DNA of 39,533 nt from an uncultured Anaerolineaceae bacterium (lineage in GTDB: Bacteria; Chloroflexota; Anaerolineae; Anaerolineales; E44-bin32): contig CAZMVJ010000003.1 in assembly GCA_964569445.1 (NCBI GenBank), forward strand, positions 1 to 39,533, written 5' to 3'. Made by a program: the position numbers and the translations under genes. The notes beneath the pieces were generated by a model, which worked only from the letters and a program-made list of their open reading frames with translations, was not told where the DNA came from and searched no databases. Of this stretch, positions 11,954-22,372 are shown piece after piece; position 1 is the stretch's first letter; every line of letters starts with the position of its first letter.

Positions 11954-12316
11954 ATGAGTGCCGGACGGATCATCGCCTATATCGCCGCCGCCATCCTGAT
12001 CTTCTTCGGTTTCCTGTTTGTCTACGGCGCCTTCAGCCCGCAGGGGTCCGCCGGCTGGATCCCGATCGGCCTGATCAGCCTGGGCGCCGGTTTCGTCCTG
12101 ATTTGGCTCGCCGGACGGCGCGCGGCCGCCGCCGGGAAGCAGGAGATCGTCCAGCGCATCGAGATCTCGGGAGATGTCAGCCTGGAGAAAATGACCTGCC
12201 GCAACTGCGGCGGGGCTCTCAGCCCGGAAAACGTCAAGGTCGTGGCCGGCGCCGCCGTCGTCACCTGCCCCTTCTGCGGAACCTCGTATCACCTCGAAGA
12301 AGAGCCCAAGTGGTAG
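11954..12316 (+). CDS. Small membrane protein (2 predicted TM) with a C-terminal CxxC...CxxC zinc ribbon
   Basis: ATG 11954 lies 8 nt after GGAGG (11941-11945). Hydrophobic segments IIAYIAAAILIFFGFLFVYGAF and WIPIGLISLGAGFVLIWLA. C-terminus CRNCGGAL...CPFCGTSYHLEEEPKW. Possible promoter TTGCCC (11898-11903) / TAGACT (11922-11927). Confidence 0.6.
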   Translation: MSAGRIIAYIAAAILIFFGFLFVYGAFSPQGSAGWIPIGLISLGAGFVLIWLAGRRAAAAGKQEIVQRIEISGDVSLEKMTCRNCGGALSPENVKVVAGAAVVTCPFCGTSYHLEEEPKW

Positions 12317-12396: not shown

Positions 12397-14052
12397 ATGC
12401 GAAAGGCACTCCTAGTCCTCGCGCTGGCGCTCCTGGCCATCGCCTTGATCGCCTCCCCGGCGTCCGCCCAATCGTATTCGTTTCAGGTCCCCGAACAGGC
12501 GGTCGACGTCTACCTGGAGGAGGACGGCTCGATGCGCCTGGTATACCGGATCGTGTTTGCCAACGATCCGGGCGCGCCGCCGATCGATTTCGTCGATGTC
12601 GGGCTGCCCACCGAGGATTACGACCTCGGGTCCGTGCTCGCCTGGGTCGACGGCCAGCCGATCTCGTCCATCGAGGCTTCGCCCTACGTGACCCCGGGGA
12701 TCGCCCTCGGGTTGGGCGGCGCGTCGATCCCGGGCGGCCGCACCGGCGAAGTCGTCGTCGAGATCCCGCGCGTCGACAATGTCCTTTACGCCGGTGACGA
12801 GGCGGGCTACGCCAGCGCCAAGTTCTCCCCGAGCTGGTTCGACAGCCAGTTCGTCCGCGGCTCGACGGACATGACCGTGACCTTCCATCTCCCACCGGGA
12901 GTCCAGCCGGACCAGCCCCGCTGGCACACCCCCACCGGCGGCTGGCCGGAATCGCCTCCGGCGGTCGGGCTGGACGAGCAGGGGCGCATTGTCTACTCCT
13001 GGCGTGACACCTCGGCCAACGCCTACACCCAGTTCATCTTCGGGGCGTCCTTCCCTTCGACGGTCGTTCCCGCGGAGACCCTGCAGACGCCGACCTCCGG
13101 ACTCTTCACCGGACTCTTCGCCGCCTTCTCGTCCTTGATCGCCGGTATCGCCGGATGCTTCTTCCCTCTCCTTCCGGTGCTGATCGTCGTGGGCCTGATC
13201 TTCTTCGCCCGCAGCCGCTCGCGTCTGGCCTACCTGCCGCCGAAGATCGCCGTCGAAGGCCACGGGATCAAGCGCGGCCTGACGGCCGTCGAATCCGCCG
13301 TCTTGCTGCAGACCGGCCTCGACAAAGTCCTGACGATGATTCTCTTCGGCGTTGTCCGCAAGGGCGGCGGCCGCGTGATCCAACAGGAGCCTCTTAAGAT
13401 CGAAGCCCTCCCGGCGCCGACGACCGAGCTGCGCGCCTACGAGACGGCCTTCATCAAGGCGGCGGTCGAGCCCGATTTACGTCTCCGCCAGCGGGCCTTC
13501 TCCGACCTGATGATCGACCTGGTCCGTTCGGTGCAGACCAAGATGAAAGGCTTCAGCACGGGCGAGACCCGCGACTATTACCGCTCGATCATGCGCAAGG
13601 CGTGGGCCGAGGTCGAGGCCGCCGGGACGCCCGAGGTTCGCTCGGAGCGCTACAGCGAAGGCCTCGAATGGTTGATGCTCGATGGCGACTTCGACGATCG
13701 AACGCGCCGGACGTTCACGTCCGGCCCGGTCTACGTGCCGGTGTGGTGGTCGAACTACAGTCCGGCTCGCCCGGCGACGCCCGTCGTCAGCGGAACCTCA
13801 GCCAGGGGATCGGGCGCGGTCTCGCTGCCGCACCTGCCGGGCGCCGACTTCGCCGCGTCGATGGCTCGCAGCGTGCAGAACAGCGCCGGCGCGCTCGTCG
13901 GCAACGTCGCCGCCTTCACCCAGGGCGTGGCCAAGACGACCAATCCGCCGCCGGTCACGCGTTCCTACGGCGGTTCGCGCAGCGGGGGCGGCTGCGCCTG
14001 TGCCTGCGCCTGCGCCGGATGCGCCTGCGCGTGTGCCGGAGGCGGAAGGTGA
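12397..14052 (+). CDS. Signal-peptide / TM-anchored envelope protein (tentatively DUF2207-like) with a C-terminal Gly-flanked (Cys-Ala) repeat tail
   Basis: ATG 12397 is in frame inside ORF 11581-14052 and follows GGGGGA. Signal peptide MRKALLVLALALLAIALIASPASA/QS. A hydrophobic stretch of about 37 residues (GLFTGLFAAFSSLIAGIAGCFFPLLPVLIVVGLIFFA) is followed by RSRSR. The C-terminus is GGSRSGGGCACACACAGCACACAGGGR. The DUF2207 resemblance is from memory only. Confidence 0.8.
   Translation: MRKALLVLALALLAIALIASPASAQSYSFQVPEQAVDVYLEEDGSMRLVYRIVFANDPGAPPIDFVDVGLPTEDYDLGSVLAWVDGQPISSIEASPYVTPGIALGLGGASIPGGRTGEVVVEIPRVDNVLYAGDEAGYASAKFSPSWFDSQFVRGSTDMTVTFHLPPGVQPDQPRWHTPTGGWPESPPAVGLDEQGRIVYSWRDTSANAYTQFIFGASFPSTVVPAETLQTPTSGLFTGLFAAFSSLIAGIAGCFFPLLPVLIVVGLIFFARSRSRLAYLPPKIAVEGHGIKRGLTAVESAVLLQTGLDKVLTMILFGVVRKGGGRVIQQEPLKIEALPAPTTELRAYETAFIKAAVEPDLRLRQRAFSDLMIDLVRSVQTKMKGFSTGETRDYYRSIMRKAWAEVEAAGTPEVRSERYSEGLEWLMLDGDFDDRTRRTFTSGPVYVPVWWSNYSPARPATPVVSGTSARGSGAVSLPHLPGADFAASMARSVQNSAGALVGNVAAFTQGVAKTTNPPPVTRSYGGSRSGGGCACACACAGCACACAGGGR
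13993..14037 (+). repeat. Imperfect TGYGCS hexanucleotide repeat encoding CACACACA-G-CACACA
   Basis: In frame with the CDS: TGC GCC TGT GCC TGC GCC TGC GCC GGA TGC GCC TGC GCG TGT GCC. Confidence 0.9.
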
Positions 14053-15428
14053 GCTGGTTGCCCGGGCGCACATCCGCCACCGCGCGCGATTCGCGCCAAG
14101 GGCGCTTGGAGGTCTTTCGCCGCGCCACGCCGCGCGGCTCGGCGACGATCCACCTGCGCCGCGCCGCCGATGGGCGAGCCGAGCTCTTCATCAACGCCAA
14201 CCAGGTCTACCGCCTCAATCCGACGGCGGCGCAGATGGCCAACTTGATCCTCTCGGAGATTCCCAGCGCGGAAGCCGTGCGCCGCTTGGCGCGCGTTTTC
14301 CGCGCCGACCGCCGCCGCCTGGCCCGCGACCTGGCCGCCTTTCGCGCCGATCTGGAAGGACTGCTCGACCCGGAATCGGTCTGCCCCGTGCACGACCTGA
14401 ATCTCGAGGTCATCGCACCGTTCTCCGAGATCCCCGACTCCCCCTACCGGATGGACCTGGCGCTGACGTATCGCTGCAACGACAATTGCGCGCACTGTTA
14501 CAACGCCCGACCGCGGACCTACCCCGAACTCCCCACCGAGGACTGGCGGACGATCCTCGACCGTCTGTGGGCCGTCGGCGTCCCCCACATCTGCTTTACC
14601 GGCGGCGAGGCGACGCTGCGCCACGACCTGCCTGAGCTCGTCGCCCACAGCCACGGCCTGGGTCACATCGTCGGGTTGCTCAGCAACGGGCGCCGCCTTT
14701 CCGACGCCGCCTTCGTGCGTACGCTGACCGCTGCAGGCCTCGACCACGTCCAGATCACGCTCGAATCGAGTCGGGAGGATGTCCACGATCGGATGGTGGG
14801 AGCTCGCGGGGCCTGGCGGCAGACGGTCGCGGGAATCCGGAACGCCCTGGAGGGCGGCCTGTTCGTCATGACCAACACGACGCTGCTCGCCGACAATGTC
14901 GGGCACATCGGCGAGACGATCGACTTCCTGGCCGAGGTGGGCGTACCCACGATCGGCTGCAACGCCTTGATCCACGCCGGGCACGGCGCCGAAGTCGGCT
15001 CCGGTCTGCCGGAGGGCTGGTTGGCGCCGGTGTTGCGAGACGTGCAGAGCCGAACCGAGGCTCATGGACAGCGGCTGATCTGGTATACGCCGACACAATA
15101 CTGCCACTTCGACCCCGTGGAGGCCGAGCTGGGCGTCAAAGGCTGCACGGCGGCGCGTTACAACATGTGCGTCGAACCAGATGGCGCCGTTTTGCCTTGC
15201 CAGTCCTACTATCAATCCGTCGGGAACATCCTGCGGGATCCGTGGGACTCGATCTGGAACCACGACCTTTCGATGTGGCTCCGGCAGCGGAAGTACATGT
15301 CTGACGACTGCCGCGCCTGCTCGCTCGTCGCCGAATGCGGGGGCGGCTGCCCCCTGAGCCCGCCGGCCGCTACTTACGGATCCGGCTGGATCCCGGTTGG
15401 GGATGTCTCCCTGGCCGGGCGAGGTTGA
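14049..15428 (+). CDS. Radical SAM / SPASM-domain enzyme with an N-terminal PqqD-like (RRE) domain
   Basis: GTG 14049 overlaps the upstream TGA 14050-14052 (GTGA). RRE-like segment ELFINANQVYRLNPTAAQMANLILSEIPSAEAVRRLARVF...FRADLEGLL. CxxxCxxC motif LTYRCNDNCAHCYN; GGE motif CFTGGEATL. SPASM cysteines GCTAARYNMCVEPDGAVLPC and CRACSLVAECGGGC (CX2CX5CX3C). Confidence 0.9.
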   Translation: MSWLPGRTSATARDSRQGRLEVFRRATPRGSATIHLRRAADGRAELFINANQVYRLNPTAAQMANLILSEIPSAEAVRRLARVFRADRRRLARDLAAFRADLEGLLDPESVCPVHDLNLEVIAPFSEIPDSPYRMDLALTYRCNDNCAHCYNARPRTYPELPTEDWRTILDRLWAVGVPHICFTGGEATLRHDLPELVAHSHGLGHIVGLLSNGRRLSDAAFVRTLTAAGLDHVQITLESSREDVHDRMVGARGAWRQTVAGIRNALEGGLFVMTNTTLLADNVGHIGETIDFLAEVGVPTIGCNALIHAGHGAEVGSGLPEGWLAPVLRDVQSRTEAHGQRLIWYTPTQYCHFDPVEAELGVKGCTAARYNMCVEPDGAVLPCQSYYQSVGNILRDPWDSIWNHDLSMWLRQRKYMSDDCRACSLVAECGGGCPLSPPAATYGSGWIPVGDVSLAGRG

Positions 15429-15433
15429 GCGCC

Positions 15434-16603
15434 ATGACCGACATTCTGCATCGCGTATTCCCGCCCGCGCCCGAACGGCCGATCGTCCCGCCCGGGACCT
15501 ATCACTGCATGCAGGTCGACCCGCCAGCCCAACCGCGCCGTCTGCACCTGCGGGTCGAGTCCGACGGCCGGGGTCTGCTGATCGTCAACGCTTCGACCGT
15601 GCTCCACCTGAACGAGAGCGCCACGGCTCACGCCTGGCACCTGGTCCAGGGCAACAGCGAGGCCGACGCGGCCGAGTGGATGGCGCGGCGCTTCCGCATC
15701 AGTCGCAGGCGGGCCTTGAAAGACGGTCGGCTCATCCGGGACCAGGTCGAGTCGCTCGCCGAAAGAGAGGACCTCGACCCGGTGATGGTCATGGGGCTGG
15801 GGCGGGCCGATCCGTACGGGGCGCGTGCGACGGCCCCCTATCGTCTTGACTTGGCCCTGACCTACCGTCTCGCCGATGGCGTGTCGGTGGACCCACAGGC
15901 GCGCCGGCGGGTCGATCATGAGCTCACGACCGAGGAATGGAGAGGCGTCTTGGACCAGGCCTGGTCCATCGGGATTCCGCACGTCATCTTCGTCGGCGGT
16001 GAACCCACGGTCCGCCCGGATCTGCTCGACCTGATCCGGCATGCCGAGCAGCTCGGTCAGGTGTCGGGCGTCGTTACCTCCGCCGAAGGCCTGCTTACGC
16101 CGCGGCGACTGGAGGGATTGGCCGCCGCCGGCGTCGATCATCTCCTGGCCGTCGTCGATCCGAAAAGCGCGTCATCGCTGGACGGGCTCCGGCAGGCTGT
16201 GGCTTCCGACGTCTTTTGCGCGGCTCACCTGACGATTGATCCGAAGGACGAAGCGATCATTATCGAGGATCTTCAGCGAGTTCGCGAGACGGGGGTGACG
16301 CACGTCTCCCTGAGCGCGCCGCCCGGGGCGGCAGGCGCCGCCGCGCTCGGAGTCGCTCAGCAGGCTCTGGCGGAGGCCGGACTGAGCCTGGTGTGGGATC
16401 TCCCCGTGCCCTTTGCCGGCCACAACCCGATTCGTCTCGAGGCCGGTGCCGGCCCTGAGGCCGGGGCCTGGCTCTACATCGAGCCGGACGGCGACGTGCT
16501 GCCGGCGATCGGCGCGGAGACGGTGCTGGGCAACGTTGCGCGCGATTCGATCGCCGACATGTGGCGCCATGCGGCGGAAGGCCTGGCCCTTCCCGCGAGC
16601 TGA
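15434..16603 (+). CDS. Degenerate radical-SAM/SPASM paralog retaining the RRE-like domain but lacking all Fe-S cluster cysteines
   Basis: ATG 15434 lies 5 nt after the upstream stop. PYRLDLALTYRLADGVSVDPQ aligns with PYRMDLALTYRCNDNCAHCYN of the neighbour. IFVGGEPTVRPDL aligns with CFTGGEATLRHDL. YIEPDGDVLPAIGAETVLGNV aligns with CVEPDGAVLPCQSYYQSVGNI. Only 2 Cys occur in 389 aa, and the protein ends before the CX2CX5CX3C block. Confidence 0.8.
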   Translation: MTDILHRVFPPAPERPIVPPGTYHCMQVDPPAQPRRLHLRVESDGRGLLIVNASTVLHLNESATAHAWHLVQGNSEADAAEWMARRFRISRRRALKDGRLIRDQVESLAEREDLDPVMVMGLGRADPYGARATAPYRLDLALTYRLADGVSVDPQARRRVDHELTTEEWRGVLDQAWSIGIPHVIFVGGEPTVRPDLLDLIRHAEQLGQVSGVVTSAEGLLTPRRLEGLAAAGVDHLLAVVDPKSASSLDGLRQAVASDVFCAAHLTIDPKDEAIIIEDLQRVRETGVTHVSLSAPPGAAGAAALGVAQQALAEAGLSLVWDLPVPFAGHNPIRLEAGAGPEAGAWLYIEPDGDVLPAIGAETVLGNVARDSIADMWRHAAEGLALPAS

Positions 16604-16627: not shown

Positions 16628-17392
16628 ATGGCCCGCCCTGATCCCATCGATCGGCGACACCTGCGTTTCACCGAACAGGCCGCCTGGACGGCGGCACTTC
16701 GCGCGCAGCTGCTAAGCCGGATTCCCGACGAGGCCGCCGCCCTCCTGCTGGAGGTCGGCGCCGGGACGGGTGCCGTCGCCGGCGATCTCGCCGCTCAGCG
16801 TCCGGCGGCGCGGGTGATGGCGCTCGACATCGATCTGGCGGCCTGCCGTTACGGGGCGGAGCATGCTGCCCGTGCGGCCTGGCAATGCGGCGACGCCCAC
16901 GCGCTGCCCTTCCGGTCGTCGTCCCTCGACGCCACCCTCTTCCACTTCGTGCTGCTGTGGCTGGACGATCCGGCCCAGGCGTTGGCCGAGGCCGTGCGCG
17001 TCACGCGCCCCGGCGGCTGGGTTGCGGCGTTGGCCGAGCCCGATCATGCCGCCCGGCTCGACTTCCCCGATGTCCTGGCGCGCCTGGGCGAGCGCCAGAC
17101 AGAGGCGCTGGCCATGGAAGGCGCCGACGTCCGGATGGGCCGGAAGCTGCGCGCCCTCTTGGCTGCGGTCGAGCTTGAGGATGTGGAATGCGGCGTGCTC
17201 GGCGGGCAGTGGCACTCCGGCGCGGGGGCCGGCGAATCTTCGCTCGAGTGGGAGACGCTGCGCCGCGACCTGGACCTGACCGTTCCGGCGGCGGACCTCG
17301 ACGCGCTCGAGGCCTTCGATCGCGGGTCCTGGGAGCGCGGTGAACGCGTGCTCTTCGTTCCGACTTTCTACGCCATAGGGCGCGTAACCTGA
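16628..17392 (+). CDS. Class I SAM-dependent methyltransferase
   Basis: Motif I LLEVGAGTGAVAGDL, followed by acidic ALDID and post-II/III motifs (LDATLFHFVLLWLDDP, VTRPGGWV). Confidence 0.85.
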   Translation: MARPDPIDRRHLRFTEQAAWTAALRAQLLSRIPDEAAALLLEVGAGTGAVAGDLAAQRPAARVMALDIDLAACRYGAEHAARAAWQCGDAHALPFRSSSLDATLFHFVLLWLDDPAQALAEAVRVTRPGGWVAALAEPDHAARLDFPDVLARLGERQTEALAMEGADVRMGRKLRALLAAVELEDVECGVLGGQWHSGAGAGESSLEWETLRRDLDLTVPAADLDALEAFDRGSWERGERVLFVPTFYAIGRVT

Positions 17393-17423
17393 CCCTCGGC
17401 TACGTACCGTCGCTGATAATTGG

Positions 17424-17503
17424 GTAGGGGCGAAGCACCCTGGCACCTCCCGCCACATCGTCCCGGTGCCCTGCCGGGAGGGCAGGTTGTCCTTCGCCCC
17501 TAC
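17424..17503. repeat. 80-nt palindromic element just downstream of the methyltransferase; possible terminator
   Basis: GTAGGGGCGAAG (17424-17435) pairs with CTTCGCCCCTAC (17492-17503). An inner stem is CCTGCC (17470-17475) / GGCAGG (17481-17486). Confidence 0.5.
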
Positions 17504-17580
17504 GGTCTTACCGGCTGCACCAGCCAGCGTCTAGCGGATTGCGGAGGATCGCCAGATGTCGTCAAACCCCCACCCCCTAT

Positions 17581-17757
17581 CCCCCTCCCCCCCGCAATGA
17601 TGAGACTTTCTACGTTTGCGCTGTCCTGCGGGGGGAGGGGGAGGGATTCTTCAAAGGGGATGGGGGTGGCTTCGCCACCCCCATCCCCTTTGAGACTCTT
17701 TCCCCCCTCTCCGCCACGCGCCTTGGATTTGAGACGAGCCTCAGCGCGGAGAGGGGG
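17581..17757. repeat. Tripartite GC-rich hairpin array (long-loop hairpin, TTC-loop hairpin, long-loop hairpin)
   Basis: (a) CCCCCTCCCCCCCGC (17581-17595) pairs with GCGGGGGGAGGGGG (17628-17641), differing by one C/G. (b) A perfect stem GGGGATGGGGGTGGC-ttc-GCCACCCCCATCCCC (17656-17688) is extendable to 17652-17692. (c) CCCCCTCTCCGC (17703-17714) pairs with GCGGAGAGGGGG (17746-17757) around a 31-nt loop. Confidence 0.65.
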
Positions 17758-17801
17758 TCAGGGGGTGAGGTGGAAGACGGTTTTTTCGCATGCTCCAAGT
17801 G

Positions 17802-18518
17802 TCAGCTGGGCGCCAATGCTGGTAATCCATCCCGGGCTGCGGGTTTCCGCCGGGTTACCCACAACAACAACGCCGCCTCCACTAGCGTCAGGGCCATCAG
17901 CAGCGCGAACACGTCGCGCCAGAATCGCATCGGAAAAAGGCGAATGAGGGTGTCCGAAGTGTAGAAGACCCAGGTGCCGCTTTGGAAGAAGACCTGATGG
18001 AACCCGGTGAAGAGGACGGAGAAGGACAACAGGAGCAATCCGACCAGGGCCACCATCAGGAACAATGTAATGCGCGCGCCCAGGTTGAATCCGCGCCGGA
18101 CCGTCCCGCTGGAGGCGAATCGCCAGGCGGCAAGGCCCACACCGGCCAGCAAGACAACCAGGGCCGCCCAAATCCTTACGGCGCCTTGGACCAAGATCTT
18201 GACGTCCACCATGTGGCTCAGCTCGCGCGGATTGTAGAGAGCGATGCCGTTGGGGTCGCGCACATCGGCCAGGAATTCCGGGCCGGCATCGTTGAACAAG
18301 TAGGCTCGGGCGATCTCGGCCAGGCGGACGCGTTCCTCCCGGGTGAAGCCGTAGGGGTCGTCGGGGAACCCGGGCGTCGAATACTCGACCGAGACGAAGA
18401 GCGGGGTCAGGAGCAAGCGGACGTTGGTCAGAATCAACACGACAGGCACCAGGATGCCGATGGCGACGCGAGCCGTCGAAGACAGTCGTCGCTGCGTCGG
18501 AAGAGCCTCCCGGCTCAT
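17802..18518 (-). CDS. Integral membrane protein, TIGR01906/DUF1461-like (family assignment tentative)
   Basis: ATG 18518 overlaps the upstream stop (ATGA at 18515-18518). There are four or more hydrophobic segments and an extracytoplasmic loop with PGFPDDPYGFTREERVRLAEIARAYLF...RELSHMVDVKILVQG. Confidence 0.7.
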   Translation of the reverse strand: MSREALPTQRRLSSTARVAIGILVPVVLILTNVRLLLTPLFVSVEYSTPGFPDDPYGFTREERVRLAEIARAYLFNDAGPEFLADVRDPNGIALYNPRELSHMVDVKILVQGAVRIWAALVVLLAGVGLAAWRFASSGTVRRGFNLGARITLFLMVALVGLLLLSFSVLFTGFHQVFFQSGTWVFYTSDTLIRLFPMRFWRDVFALLMALTLVEAALLLWVTRRKPAARDGLPALAPS

Positions 18519-20101
18519 TGGAGCAGCCCCATGTCGCCTGTCAGGAGGAACTGAAGGGCGACGGCGTTGGTCAGCTGTTCGATCGGCGCCCAATCGTCTG
18601 TAAAGACGACCGTCGACATCGGTGTCGGCTGCAGATTGCCCAGTGTTCGCACCAGAACATCCTCCAGGAGCGGGTCGGCCCCTTCCCTCGCCAGGCGGTC
18701 GAGGTTGGCGACCAGGTTGCCCGGCTCGGTCGGCAGCATTGTGGCGTAGACAATTGTGTTGAAGCTCGCCGGGACGTCGACGACGTGGACCGACGGGAAG
18801 ACGGCCCCGAGCGTGCCGGCCATCCCGTCGACCAGGCGGCGGTCCTCCGGTGTCCGCCCGACGTTGATCACGACGACTCCGTCCGGCAGCAGATGCCCCC
18901 GGACCTCCTCGAAGAATTCACGCGTTGTAAGCTGCCAGGGGATGTACGGCAGGCGATAGGCGTCGATCGCCACCACGCTGTACAGCTCCGGGCTGTGGGC
19001 CAGCCCCCACCGGCCGTCGGCGGTAATGACATTGAGATTCGGTTCGTCCATGGCGAAGTAAGCGCGCCCCACCTCGGTGATCCCCGGGTCGATCTCCCAG
19101 CCGTCGATGGGCAGCGGCCCGAAGACCTGGGTGTACTGTTTGGCGATCGTCCCCGCCGCCAGACCGACGATCCCCAGCCGCTCGACTTCTTCGCCCGGCA
19201 CAGGCGACACGTTCCAATAGGGCGCCGCCAGGAAGTAGTCCCACGTCCCGTTGGTCGCCGGCTGGTCGGGGTCGTAGACGGAGTGAATCCCCTGCCCCTC
19301 GTTCAGCAACAAGTAACGGACGCCGTCGCGCTCGACCACCTGGATGTAGTTGTAGGCGGACTCGTCCTCGAAGATCTGTCCGGCGGTGGCTTTGATCGGC
19401 TGGCTCAGGCTCAGCCAGGACCAGGCCACCAGGACGATCGGCATCCACAGGTAGCGCAGCATCCTCTTGCGATCGATTTGCCACAGACCCACGAACGCCA
19501 CCGCCATCAAAGTCATGCTGAACACGAGAAAGGTGCGCGCCGTGCCCACGGCGGGGATCAGCCAAAGCACCGGCACGAACGTCCCGAGGATGGCTCCCAG
19601 GGTCGAGATGGCGTACATCCGGCCGGAGACCCGACCGGCGTGCTGCGGATCCTGGATCGCCAGGCGGATGGCGAAAGGCGAGACGCAGCCGAGCAGGATG
19701 ACCGGAAGGCTGAAGAGGATCAACACCGACAGGAACGACCCGACCATGATCGCCGCATCGAGTCGTTCGACGGCGCCGACGGCCGCCAGCAGCACCGGCC
19801 GCGCTACCGGCGGGATGACGCCGCCCAGGAAGGCCGCCCACGCCAGCAGCGTGTAAAACGTCCGTAGATAGGGAGATCGATCCGCCCAGCGACCGCCGAT
19901 GAAATAACCGACCGTCAGGTAGAGGAGGATGAGCCCGATGATGTTGGCCCACACCAGATTGCTAGTTCCGAAGACATTGCCCAAGAGTCGGGAAGCCGAG
20001 ATCTCGAGGGCCAACGTAACCATGCCGGCGATGAAGACGGCCAGGGTCAGCAGGCGGTTGGTCGGGCGATCCAAAGAGACACGGACATCAGGCTGCGTCA
20101 C
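18515..20101 (-). CDS. Fused polytopic membrane domain + spermidine-synthase-like (class I MTase fold) protein
   Basis: The N-terminal 220 aa or so hold multiple TM segments. The C-terminal part has SAYNYIQVVERDGVRYLLLNEGQGIHS, LGIVGLAAGTIAKQY, VVAIDAYRLPYIPWQLTTREFFEEVRGHLLPDGVVVINV. The start overlaps the DUF58 gene by 14 nt. Confidence 0.8.
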   Translation of the reverse strand: MTQPDVRVSLDRPTNRLLTLAVFIAGMVTLALEISASRLLGNVFGTSNLVWANIIGLILLYLTVGYFIGGRWADRSPYLRTFYTLLAWAAFLGGVIPPVARPVLLAAVGAVERLDAAIMVGSFLSVLILFSLPVILLGCVSPFAIRLAIQDPQHAGRVSGRMYAISTLGAILGTFVPVLWLIPAVGTARTFLVFSMTLMAVAFVGLWQIDRKRMLRYLWMPIVLVAWSWLSLSQPIKATAGQIFEDESAYNYIQVVERDGVRYLLLNEGQGIHSVYDPDQPATNGTWDYFLAAPYWNVSPVPGEEVERLGIVGLAAGTIAKQYTQVFGPLPIDGWEIDPGITEVGRAYFAMDEPNLNVITADGRWGLAHSPELYSVVAIDAYRLPYIPWQLTTREFFEEVRGHLLPDGVVVINVGRTPEDRRLVDGMAGTLGAVFPSVHVVDVPASFNTIVYATMLPTEPGNLVANLDRLAREGADPLLEDVLVRTLGNLQPTPMSTVVFTDDWAPIEQLTNAVALQFLLTGDMGLLQ

Positions 20102-21422
20102 GACGCAAATCTCCGGCTGGCTGGCTGAGGGACCGCTCCAGCGGCTGCCCGCGACGGATCACGCGCACGGGGATGCCCGCATCCGACAAGGCCAGCGCCA
20201 GGGGGCGTGCGGACATGCGTGAGCCGAAATCGGATGGTTCGACGAACGACGCCACGGGGACCAGCCCGCGTCGGCGGAGCTCGAGCATCTCGTGGTAGAG
20301 GTCCTCGCGCACGTTCGGAGTGAGCACGGCGATCGTCGCTCCCCTGGGGAACCAGGTTGTCTCGATCCGGAAGACGTCCGTCAGGTCGACATCCCCGTCG
20401 GCGCGAAAGCCGGCCAGGGCCTCCAGCAGGCGAAACAACTGTGCTTCGCCGCGCTCGGGCTGGACGACCATGCGCGAGGTTCCGTAACCGAGCAGGCCGG
20501 TGGCCCGGTTGCGTCCAAGAACGTGCAGCGCCACCGAGGCCGCCGCCGCGATCATGTACTCCTCTGTCTGAGGCGGCAATCTCAGCTGCCGGCCCGGCCC
20601 TTTCCCAGCCAGCGATTCTTCACCAGCCGGCTCGCCGAAATGCATCCGGCGCTGACCGTCGAGCACGATCCAGACGTCGGACATCGGATCGAGTTCGAAT
20701 TCCTTGGAGATCAGGCGCCCTCGCCGCGCCGTCGACTTCCAGTGGATGCGGCTGAGACTGTCGCCGTGAGCATACTCGCGCACGCCCGAGGCGTTCGGGG
20801 TGACCTGGTAGGTCCGCCTCCGCAGCGCCTCGCCTCCGCTCAACCGGCCGGCCGGAATCGGGAAGCTGGGCAATGGAACCGTCGGGGGAAGGACGACGAC
20901 CTCGCGGACGCCTCCGACGCTGCGGTGGGAAGGGAACAGGCCGAACGGGTCGCCGGCGATCAATGTCGTCGGGCCGAGGCGGAACCGGCCGCGGCGGGTG
21001 CAGATCGTGCGCGCCGTCCACAGCCAGGCTTGACGGGCGCCCAGCCCGGCCGCCACCGCCGAAGCCCGGTGCCCGCTGAAGTCGTGAGTCCCGCCCTCCG
21101 TCGAAAGCCCGATGGCGCGCGCGGCGGCCCACGATCCCGGCAGGTCCGACTCGTCGCGGACCTCCACCCACAGTTTGGGGAGCCGGCTGTCGTTCTTGAG
21201 TGAGAGAGTCTCCTCGAAGACCCGGCCGACCTGACTCGTCAGACTGCGGGAGGTGCGCTCGAGGCGTAGTCCCCGCAAGGCCGCCCACGACCAGGCCCAG
21301 GCCACGATCAGCACGCCGGCGAACAGCACCGACAGGCTGCCGAAGACGGACCGGCCGGTGAGGGTCAGGCCGGCCAGACTGACGAGCAGCAGACCCAGGA
21401 CGACCAGGGCCCGCTGGGTCAT
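20088..21422 (-). CDS. DUF58-domain protein (MoxR partner), N-terminal 2 TM
   Basis: Motif [34 protein letters not shown] overlap with the moxR stop at 21419-21422. Confidence 0.85.
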
Positions 21423-22372
21423 CGTCCTCCGGCCGTTCCGGGAACCGGCGTCGCCCCCAGGATCTCCTGGACGATCATGCGCGCGTCGACGTCGCGGATG
21501 CGGGCTCCCGAGCCGATGATCATACGATGGGCCAGCGCCGGCACAGCGACGGCCTTGATGTCGTCCGGCAGGACGTAGTCGCGCTCCGCCAGCGCGGCGT
21601 GCGCCTGGGCGGCACGGAAAAGGGCCAGGCTCCCACGTGGGCTGGCCCCCAGGTAGACCTCGTGGTGCTTGCGGGTGGCCGTGACCAGATCGAGGATGTA
21701 ACGCTTGAGCTCGTCGACCACGCGGACTTCGCGAACCTTGCGCTGCGCTTCCATCACCTCGTCGACCAGGGCCACGGCCTGCAGCGTCTCGAGGGGATGC
21801 TGGATCTGCTGCCCCTCCAGCATCCGAATTTCATCGGCCAGCAGCGGGTATCCCAGGCTGATGCGCAGCAAGAAGCGGTCGAGCTGCGCCTCGGGCAGAG
21901 GGAACGTCCCTTCGTATTCGATCGGGTTCTGAGTGGCCAGCACCAGAAAGGGCGTCGGCATCGGGTAGGTGACGCCGTCGACGGTCACCTGCCGTTCTTC
22001 CATCACTTCGAGCAGCGCCGCCTGCGTCTTGGGCGTCGCCCGGTTGATCTCGTCGATCAGCACGATCTGCGCCAGCACCGGCCCGGGCCGGTATTCGAAG
22101 GTGTGGGTCTGCTGGTTGAAGATCGAGACCCCGGTCACGTCGCTCGGCAGCATGTCCGGCGTGAACTGGATGCGATTGAACGAACCGCCGATCGAACGGG
22201 CCAGGCTCTTAGCCAGCACCGTCTTCCCGGTGCCGGGCACGTCCTCGATCAGAATGTGGCCCTGGGCCAGGAGGCCCAGCAACGTCAGACGGATCGCCTC
22301 CGGCTTGCCGACGATGACCCGCTCGATATTCTCGGCGATGCGCTTCCCCAGCTGGGAAACGGACTCGATCAA
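21419..22372 (-). CDS. MoxR-family AAA+ ATPase
   Basis: [44 protein letters not shown], Walker [24 protein letters not shown], and a C-terminal AAA lid. Confidence 0.95.

Follow-up and report, generated by a model that had tools for sequence, protein, structure and literature searches.

The concept of a radical SAM (rSAM) pseudo-enzyme is not new, because such proteins are named in curated databases, where "pseudo-rSAM" families exist. One of these is TIGR04150, which we take to be the 'pseudo-rSAM protein, GG-Bacteroidales system' that is paired with the rSAM/SPASM protein TIGR04148 and the precursor TIGR04149. Another is TIGR04347, a pseudo-SAM/SPASM family of NCBIfam that presumably keeps its SPASM part, as the name suggests. 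To our knowledge, the pseudo-rSAM proteins of neither family have been characterized biochemically. Our literature searches returned no functional study of any rSAM pseudo-enzyme, and the only relevant item was a mention in PMC4573289 of TIGR04150 and its co-occurrence with partner genes in cassettes. In view of these cassettes and of the curated TIGR04347, the novelty that the initial annotation saw in the pairing of an active and a Cys-less copy was overstated.

The pair analysed here lies in the window, the whole stretch of 39,533 nucleotides, where five genes follow one another:

11954..12316, + strand: gene A, about 120 aa, with two predicted transmembrane (TM) helices and, at its C-terminus, a zinc ribbon (CxxC...CxxC), conserved upstream of B
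12397..14052, + strand: gene B, 551 aa, the presumed substrate, made up of signal peptide, beta-sandwich ectodomain (AF2), a single TM helix and cytoplasmic domain
13993..14052, + strand: C-terminal tail of B, CACACACAGCACACAGGGR, and the stop codon; 19 invariant residues with a Cys-Ala repeat
14049..15428, + strand: gene C, an active-type radical SAM/SPASM protein with an N-terminal PqqD-like RRE (Pfam, conserved Cys)
15434..16603, + strand: gene D, the feature under study, a Cys-less rSAM/SPASM paralog of 389 aa
16628..17392, + strand: gene E, a class I SAM-dependent methyltransferase of 254 aa downstream of D (Methyltransf_11, 73.5 bits)

Anaerolineae loci with as little as about 40% identity preserve the order of zinc ribbon, membrane protein, active rSAM/SPASM enzyme, Cys-less paralog and methyltransferase (A-B-C-D-E). 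In the loci picked by D, C was found upstream in 69/75, B upstream in 64/65 and E downstream in 78/80, at a median distance of 76 nt, and A stood upstream of B in 58 of the 61 evaluable loci. When metagenome loci were picked by C, D was downstream in 55/57, and in 29/29 of those with a flank of at least 4.3 kb; B was upstream in all 40 (40/40). The co-occurrence of the five genes is near-obligate, and the proposal that the Cys-less copy accompanies its active paralog in related genomes was borne out from both sides. Short contigs, together with an insertion of 2.2-2.9 kb that separates C from D in related loci, account or plausibly account for four loci without an adjacent C (L054, L058, L060 and L069). 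The only two clear exceptions to the pairing are L064 (DATCIL01) and L079 (JBDLJU01), in which D comes directly after B with no C between them, and this is a point against a partnership of C and D. Both the cassette and the likely substrate, which is the Cys-Ala tail of B two genes upstream of D, were missed in the initial annotation. The literature searches found nothing on an A-B-C-D-E cassette or on Cys-Ala tails with rSAM enzymes, and the D family and the cassette appear to be undescribed.

In NCBIfam, each of the five proteins was below every family cut-off or had no match. Gene A, whose start was set by homology to L001, L002 and L004, gave only weak zinc-ribbon matches in Pfam and NCBIfam. 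Gene C scored above the gathering scores of Pfam for Radical_SAM (88.5 bits), SPASM (36.3 bits) and PqqD (25.7 bits), and its CX3CX2C motif, eight SPASM-region Cys and C112 are all conserved. Its best NCBIfam family was PqqE (TIGR02109), with 128 bits for C and 83.9 bits for D, both under the cut-off of 381. In gene E, the methyltransferase domain alone was detected by Pfam.

C and D share 32% identity over 386 columns (BLASTP, E=1e-50) and, on this comparison, are each other's closest relatives, which upholds the original description of D as a tandem paralog of its upstream rSAM/SPASM neighbour; the three landmark alignments quoted with that description were reproduced as well. Outside the Cys positions, long motifs are common to both proteins in the RRE, beta1, GGEPT, AGLDH and EPDGDV, and the RRE region of both contains NA.T.LHLN.TA. 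We compared the Cys by aligning 66 active sequences jointly with 84 Cys-less ones. In the active family, 12 Cys were conserved at 90% or more: C112, the CX3CX2C triad (143/147/150) and those of the SPASM region (352/366/374/384/421/424/430/434). In the Cys-less family, Cys occupied 0-8% of the sequences at each of these columns, with 8%, 0% and 0% at C143, C147 and C150, where the D of the window carries L, V and D. The three-Cys motif that supplies the ligand set of the SAM-binding [4Fe-4S] cluster is missing from D, and from the SPASM pattern, which provides the ligands of two auxiliary [4Fe-4S] clusters, all eight Cys of family C are gone. The last four columns are empty because the Cys-less protein ends earlier, upstream of the CX2CX5CX3C block. 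The loss of every Fe-S Cys (12/12 columns of the joint alignment) and the truncation of this block had both been recognized before and were confirmed. Judged from these residues, D cannot bind canonical Fe-S clusters.

The reading frame of D opens at 15335, and the ATG at 15434 matches Met1 in 24/24 aligned orthologs; the stop codon is at 16601-16603. The product of 389 aa has only 2 Cys, as had been stated, and the family alignment shows that neither is kept. Four parts of D were distinguished:

15491..15763, + strand: RRE/PqqD-like winged-helix region, residues ~20-110, with four predicted beta-strands and then three helices (AF2) and PqqD matches in Pfam
15836..15925, + strand: beta1 (PYRLDLALTY) followed by the ex-cluster loop, residues 135-164 (alignments)
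15995..16003, + strand: retained GGE motif, G188 G189 E190, invariant in the ortholog alignment
16469..16570, + strand: remnant of the SPASM beta-hairpin (WLYIEPDGDVLP...LGN), residues 346-379, with no Cys and with the CX2CX5CX3C block missing

Scanning the window for Rfam families and tRNAs gave no matches.

The Pfam profile of Radical_SAM (PF04055) recognized D with 39.2 bits, above its gathering score of 29.5, whereas SPASM (PF13186; 20.2 bits) stayed slightly under its gathering score of 21.5 and PqqD (PF05402; 16.1 bits) under that of 23.4. Among the 24 aligned orthologs of D, these domains were found at E<=0.1 in 24/24, 21/24 and 17/24, respectively, and the best PqqD match had an E of 8e-7. 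The RRE region of D aligns with that of C, which is itself above the PqqD gathering score, and it also has a weak match to the PqqD chaperone family of lasso peptides. The AF2 model of D (pLDDT 78, pTM 0.80) starts with the RRE, with strands at 21-59 and helices at 61-72, 76-87 and 91-110, and continues with alternating strands and helices. In Foldseek, its top matches were SuiB (E=5.7e-12) and SkfB, both RRE-bearing RiPP maturases, and then PqqE, within a range of 5.7e-12 to 1e-10. With PF04055 and this predicted structure, D belongs to the radical SAM superfamily as a fold, with a partial (beta/alpha)6 TIM-barrel core, and its N-terminus is modelled as a PqqD-homologous RRE winged helix-turn-helix, for which peptide binding is itself predicted. 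The retained RRE and barrel scaffold and the N-terminal PqqD-like segment of the initial annotation are supported by these results, although the window's own copy of the latter is sub-threshold.

Orthologs of D measure about 385 aa across Anaerolineae genomes. Their dN/dS was 0.05-0.15, compared to 0.04-0.15 for C across the same pairs of genomes, and 70 columns were invariant in the D ortholog alignment A1. D is therefore a functional gene, and the purifying selection on it is strong, equal to that on the active enzyme. Being under such selection and having lost the essential catalytic residues, it is a pseudo-enzyme in the general sense, with a predicted loss of the ancestral activity. A frameshift or an artefact behind the missing Cys, which was a caveat of the initial annotation, was rejected because the same full-length Cys-less frame of ~385 aa is conserved in >80 species-level genomes. 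D as a pseudogene was rejected by dN/dS.

Members of the B family are about 555 aa long and have no Pfam or NCBIfam family; there are >3000 homologs, all of them 'hypothetical' where the source gives a name. Conserved segments of B include LPxLPGxxFAAS and FTxGVTKTTNPPP. The ectodomain is confident in AF2, with a similarity to ribophorin I and to the N-domain of M1 aminopeptidases. Only this domain and a part of the cytoplasmic domain were modelled with confidence, and the model gives no hint of the chemistry of the tail because disorder is predicted for the final ~150 residues, the tail among them. The tail holds seven Cys, and the stop codon of B overlaps the GTG start of C (GTGA at 14049-14052). 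All residues of the tail (19/19) are invariant in alignment A2, and it was present in 65/67 of the C-picked metagenome loci. It is identical in 68 sequences (67 loci and the window), in which every synonymous codon is used per position, as are all three stops. Such invariance of the amino acids while the codons vary freely is a point for the tail as a substrate. The tail is probably cytoplasmic, because basic residues follow the single TM helix of B when read from the sequences, and rSAM enzymes act in the cytoplasm.

We suggest, with a probability of about 0.5, that D is a cluster-less, non-radical accessory subunit for substrate binding or scaffolding in a pathway that modifies the Cys-Ala tail of B. 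D, as a paralog of C, would have arisen by tandem duplication and have been kept as an accessory subunit of a single pathway, whose target would be the invariant cytoplasmic Cys-Ala tail of the membrane protein. C would perform radical chemistry on the tail, and D, with its retained RRE and dead barrel, may bind the conserved C-terminal region of B or the tail itself and hold or present it, alone or in complex with C. E would transfer a methyl group. We infer the tail as the substrate, its binding by D, a C-D complex and the chemistry on the tail, and likewise a scaffold or heterodimer-subunit role of D. In a mirror-tree comparison, the distances of D followed those of C best (r=0.70, partial 0.42), then those of B (partial 0.33) and then those of E (partial 0.20), which is a weak preference. 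A second RRE is not obviously needed, because C has its own. A heterodimer of C and D would also be unusual because the solved SPASM enzymes are, as far as we know, monomers.

The invariant polar residues of D's own could form a new active site, and this is a point against a passive role. It is possible that the old barrel was turned into a new non-radical enzyme or a protein binding a small molecule or metal, new polar residues having replaced the cluster. The GGE motif, which contacts the amino group of SAM in canonical rSAM enzymes, is invariant, and so are the family-specific D115, R124, D153 and H265, with R158, R159 and D322 near-invariant. Moreover, the ex-cluster loop is a conserved Cys-free motif (...DPxARRRVDREL) and not a degenerate sequence, and a new function would agree with selection equal to that on the active enzyme. 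However, the cluster is required for canonical SAM binding, D has substitutions at those positions of beta3 (N213), beta4 (E239/S240) and beta5 (N276) that never vary in C, and most members of D have deletions of ~23 residues after beta4 and ~13 after beta6. In Pfam and NCBIfam, D had no match to other enzyme families. We consider such a new function unlikely.

D may instead be a substrate adaptor of the methyltransferase E and not of C, in which case its RRE would recruit the tail of B to E, perhaps after the action of C. The close position of E downstream of D agrees with this, and E has a methyltransferase domain only, with no peptide-binding domain of its own. The adjacency of D and E is kept even in L064, where C is absent between B and D, and the four-gene insertion of one clade (L033, L040) separates C from D and not D from E. 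However, other genes separate D from E in 21 loci, L086 has A-B-C-D with E not adjacent, and the distances of D follow E least. An adaptor of this kind is quite unlikely on balance. We give only a slim chance to a third role, in which D would compete with C as a regulator or chaperone, shielding the unmodified Cys-rich tail from oxidation or metals or timing the modification, with no catalytic help. A tail with seven Cys would be reactive, D has retained its RRE, and C and D may recognize the same sequence because the RRE motifs are common to both families; however, the sequences hardly separate this role from that of a scaffold. That D is a decaying pseudogene or its Cys-less frame an assembly or frameshift artefact has a practically negligible chance, because only the loss of the catalytic residues speaks for it and the full-length orthologs, the low dN/dS, the confident AF2 fold and the invariant columns all stand against it.

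If the accessory role of D is extended to the whole cassette, A-E might be a vertically inherited, Anaerolineae-wide system that turns the invariant (Cys-Ala)n tail of a membrane protein into a protein-bound cofactor or a metal-binding structure, with a two-component maturase of an active rSAM/SPASM enzyme and an obligate, substrate-docking, cluster-less paralog. This extension is tentative and, in our opinion, rather doubtful. If true, the cassette would represent a protein-derived cofactor pathway of a new kind, and D would be the first radical SAM pseudo-enzyme with a defined mechanism. The D family is a good model because it is large, strongly conserved and almost always paired with its active paralog, and because it has an obvious and very unusual candidate substrate, a Cys-Ala tail of 19 residues that shows no variation throughout an entire bacterial class. 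The Anaerolineae are widespread, poorly understood filamentous anaerobes. The role of D, once worked out, would reveal how a dead rSAM scaffold is reused and would also uncover an uncharacterized protein modification that is apparently a core trait of this class.

Compared with the described systems, the cassette is similar to that of TIGR04150 at the level of annotation, in that a cassette for peptide modification combines an rSAM-like protein with an adjacent true rSAM/SPASM enzyme. However, that system belongs to the Bacteroidales and acts on a small GG-leader peptide that is secreted, whereas here the substrate is presumably the tail of a membrane protein of ~555 aa. TIGR04150 was absent from the best 25 of the 32 NCBIfam families matched at E<=0.01, where a very weak match is possible. 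TIGR04347 likewise comprises curated rSAM/SPASM pseudo-enzymes and was matched weakly by D (42.2 bits), by the ortholog in L086 (80 bits) and by C (98 bits), but these scores are far under the cut-off of 525 bits. Because D is without the SPASM Cys too, which TIGR04347 presumably keeps, its loss of Cys looks independent of that in TIGR04347.

SuiB (5V1Q), SkfB (6EFN) and PqqE (6C8V) with PqqD have an RRE, an rSAM barrel and a C-terminal auxiliary domain, as in the fold predicted for D. The presence of an RRE implies peptide recognition, which for D is a prediction. These enzymes differ from D in being active, with CX3CX2C and auxiliary clusters, whereas D is without any of the ligands. The E1-like 'C protein' is the RRE carrier that partners the YcaO cyclodehydratase. 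Its fold and chemistry are unrelated to those of D and the comparison is an analogy only, but there a dead homolog keeps its peptide-binding domain and serves an active enzyme, as D may do for C. QhpD is an rSAM/SPASM enzyme that cross-links Cys within the protein subunit QhpC, and we know of no pseudo-enzyme partner for it. QhpC has no sequence relationship to B, but in both cases the target, which for B is presumed, would be Cys-rich and part of a functional protein and not an exported peptide.

Gene D is a real protein under selection, with the expected fold by prediction, and it belongs to the radical SAM (rSAM) superfamily by fold and not as an enzyme. In a conserved cassette, A-B-C-D-E, which is divergent from ligA, it occupies the fourth position:

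Gene A: 11954-12316, plus strand; protein of ~120 aa; two TM helices predicted, and a CxxC...CxxC zinc ribbon on the cytoplasmic side
Gene B: 12397-14052, plus strand; membrane protein with signal peptide, beta-sandwich ectodomain, one TM helix and cytoplasmic region
Gene C: 14049-15428, plus strand; active rSAM/SPASM enzyme, its start set at the GTG at 14049 because this overlaps the preceding stop, as in related loci
Gene D: 15434-16603, plus strand; Cys-less rSAM/SPASM paralog of 389 aa, start ATG 15434, stop 16601-16603
Gene E: 16628-17392, plus strand; class I methyltransferase by profile matches

Gene D begins after a gap of 5 nt from the stop of gene C. Its ORF opens at 15335, and Met1 of every aligned ortholog lines up with the ATG at 15434. 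Spurious overlapping ORFs are many because the window has 65-70% G+C, and none of those overlapping the gene D region had homology support.

The initial annotation described D as a tandem paralog of C that had lost its Fe-S cysteines. The paralogy was borne out by BLASTP (386 columns, 32% identity, E=1e-50), and the motif pairs noted earlier were reproduced. In Pfam, D matched Radical_SAM with 39.2 bits (gathering score 29.5) and SPASM with 20.2 bits, slightly under the gathering score of 21.5; Radical_SAM, SPASM and PqqD were all above threshold in C. We aligned 84 D orthologs jointly with 66 C orthologs. Family C has 12 Cys at >=90% conservation, consisting of C112, the CX3CX2C triad and eight in the SPASM region, and each of these columns contains only 0-8% Cys in family D. 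The C-terminus of family D falls short of the CX2CX5CX3C block, and most members carry deletions of ~23 residues after beta4 and ~13 after beta6. The described loss of the CxxxCxxC motif, of all SPASM Cys and of the terminal block is therefore confirmed, as is the count of two Cys in the translated product, neither of which is conserved across family D. Retained are the RRE motif NA.T.LHLN.TA of the PqqD-like peptide-recognition N-terminus, beta1 (APYRLDLALTY), an invariant GGEP, AGLDH, and the SPASM hairpin YVEPDGDVLP...LGN. The old cluster loop has become a conserved, non-degenerate Cys-free motif, DPxARRRVDREL.

Several details of these columns were seen in the loci fetched from other genomes and metagenomes (L001-L167). 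More than 60% of the D orthologs (L011-L085) have a single Cys in beta1 (RLDCALTY), which is Leu in the clade of the window (residue Leu140; window 15851-15853), and in ~8% the first Cys of the former CX3CX2C survives (TYRC). C112 of C (14382-14384), in the PDGxCP linker between RRE and barrel, is a conserved Cys outside the usual rSAM/SPASM motifs; the Asp aligned to it in D, D115 (15776-15778), is 99% conserved in the Cys-less family. A variant cassette in L086 (6587-11915) has a B of 771 aa with a duplicated ectodomain and no adjacent or downstream E. Its D (407 aa) has no Cys and still contains the ~23 residues after beta4 that other D proteins have lost, so the Cys loss may predate the deletions.

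Among the candidates scored in a large protein collection, 3677 relatives of D were found at E<=0.001. The best 120 of these are 46-92% identical to D and mostly 364-406 residues long, with a few shorter fragments; where given, their names are generic (e.g. 'radical SAM protein') and their organism is Anaerolineales. At least 563 stretches of GTDB species-representative genomes encode a D relative, and the best 80 of them all come from MAGs of Anaerolineae or other Chloroflexota, some of which carry the labels Anaerolinea thermophila, Longilinea and Thermanaerothrix. In genome pairs near enough for dS to be estimated, D had a dN/dS of 0.05-0.15 and C one of 0.04-0.15; two outlying C values, from pairs with L012, reflect a frame offset in the extracted sequence. 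D evolves at ~1.4x the rate of C, about as fast as B and more slowly than E. An AlphaFold2 model from a 24-sequence alignment (pLDDT 78, pTM 0.80) predicts an N-terminal sheet with three helices and, after these, strands that alternate with helices. In a Foldseek comparison with the PDB, SuiB (E=5.7e-12) and SkfB, both RiPP maturases that bear an RRE, ranked first, followed by PqqE; a sequence-profile search of the PDB was concordant (PqqE, E=1.7e-17). The homology to C, the lost ligands and the low dN/dS support the pseudo-enzyme reading.

Co-occurrence was measured by tblastn of the five window proteins against 83 non-redundant loci fetched via D (D-picked) and, in reverse, against 80 metagenome loci fetched by patterns specific to C (C-picked).

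Co-occurrence of cassette genes in evaluable loci
C upstream of D: 69/75 (D-picked)
B upstream of D: 64/65 (D-picked)
A upstream of D: 58/61 (D-picked)
E downstream of D: 78/80 (D-picked)
D downstream of C, flank >=1.3 kb downstream: 55/57 (C-picked)
D downstream of C, flank >=4.3 kb downstream: 29/29 (C-picked)
B upstream of C: 40/40 (C-picked)

The pairing of D with its active paralog, for which profiling had been suggested at the outset, was thus found from both sides. C was absent upstream of D in six D-picked loci; in four of these the upstream sequence spans just 1.5-3.2 kb. In L060 and L069, gene C probably sits beyond the contig end, because the genes directly upstream of D are those of a 2.2-2.9 kb C-D insertion in related loci. 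Real exceptions within the locus are L064 (4119-7707) and L079 (5295-8179), in which B is followed directly by D; they are 56% identical and not sister sequences.

The C-D insertion, found in one clade (L033 4244-6925; L038-L040, L048, L060, L069), comprises a CDP-alcohol phosphatidyltransferase, a lipid-A-type acyltransferase, a PAP2 phosphatase and a nitroreductase. Between ligA and gene A, L087 has phosphatidyltransferase, acyltransferase and PAP2 types on the other strand, L002 and L004 have an acyltransferase, and L004 also a phosphatidyltransferase. These neighbours hint that the cassette is connected with membrane-lipid genes. In L050 (8114-10033), and similarly in L073, L032 and L026, D and E are separated by genes for an ICMT-family membrane methyltransferase, a C_GCAxxG_C_C redox protein, a PilZ protein and a DSP-type phosphatase. 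Gene E has a weak similarity, at 50.8 bits against a cut-off of 155, to the 'DVU_1556 family methyltransferase', and gene A a very weak one (E=0.14) to the 'DVU_1557 family redox protein'. Downstream, the ~400 nt between gene E and a convergent Lit gene (17393-17801) had no Rfam or tRNA match. The minus-strand neighbours at 17802-22372 include the Lit-family protein (Pfam, 72 bits) and a 528-aa membrane protein; further ORFs match the DUF58 and MoxR-type AAA ATPase genes of L001 by length and order only. As the neighbour order is that of L001, the window shares synteny with an Anaerolineales genome.

Gene B has no family match in Pfam or NCBIfam, and its more than 3000 homologs are 'hypothetical' wherever the source gives a name. 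Its ectodomain is a confidently predicted beta-sandwich similar both to ribophorin I and to the N-terminal domain of M1 aminopeptidases, and its TM helix is followed by basic residues and a cytoplasmic region of ~280 residues. The last 19 residues, CACACACAGCACACAGGGR (13993-14052 including the stop), are invariant in a 28-sequence alignment and identical in 68 sequences (67 loci and the window), in which all synonymous codons at every position and all three stops are used; 65 of 67 C-picked loci contain the tail as well. Because the tail is identical while synonymous codons vary, the comparison indicates that selection acts on every one of its amino acids. Recent transfer does not explain the invariance, and neither does overlap with the start of C, since just 27 of the 68 have an xTGA overlap. 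Some B orthologs have one CA unit more or fewer immediately before the tail. In the window the overlap is GTGA (14049-14052), which suggests translational coupling of B and C. We infer that the tail is the obvious candidate substrate of C, because it is cytoplasmic, Cys-rich, invariant and encoded immediately before an RRE-bearing rSAM/SPASM gene. The invariance of this tail is arguably a more remarkable feature than the pseudo-enzyme.

D has no ligands for the SAM cluster or either auxiliary cluster, and radical chemistry by D, judged from its residues, is therefore excluded on established principles. It keeps a peptide-binding-type RRE and a well-folded predicted barrel, and is constrained as much as the active enzyme. 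In the reading with the best support, to which we give about an even chance, D is an accessory, non-catalytic subunit of a tail-maturation pathway. Such a subunit would bind the conserved C-terminal region of B and hold or present it, alone or complexed with C, and this scaffold role is plausible. In a mirror-tree comparison, distances of D correlated with those of C at r=0.70 (partial 0.42), with partial values of 0.33 for B and 0.20 for E; this weak evidence points to C as the closest co-evolving partner. D may instead be an adaptor for the methyltransferase E, to which it is tightly linked, the two staying side by side in L064, which lacks C between B and D. It may also have gained a new, non-radical activity, as the conserved motif in the old cluster loop and the family-specific residues (invariant D115, R124, D153 and H265; near-invariant R158, R159 and D322) would allow. 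Lastly, D may protect a reactive B tail or time its modification.

D scored under the cut-off of every NCBIfam family, with 42 bits against the 525-bit cut-off of the 'TIGR04347 family pseudo-SAM/SPASM protein'. Another such family is TIGR04150, 'pseudo-rSAM protein, GG-Bacteroidales system', whose rSAM counterpart is TIGR04148. Their co-occurrence is noted in a passage of PMC4573289. D is outside both TIGR04347 and, among the NCBIfam matches listed (25 of 32 at E<=0.01), TIGR04150, and its Cys loss appears to be independent of theirs. In the literature searched there was no biochemical study of any pseudo-rSAM protein and nothing on the A-E cassette, which does not prove that none exists. A pseudo-rSAM partner is a concept already present in curated databases; no description appears to exist of family D, of its conservation across the class or of its link to an invariant Cys-Ala protein tail. 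Functional analogies for an accessory, non-catalytic D are PqqD with PqqE and the dead E1-like partner of YcaO cyclodehydratases, and for the whole system QhpD acting on the protein subunit QhpC.
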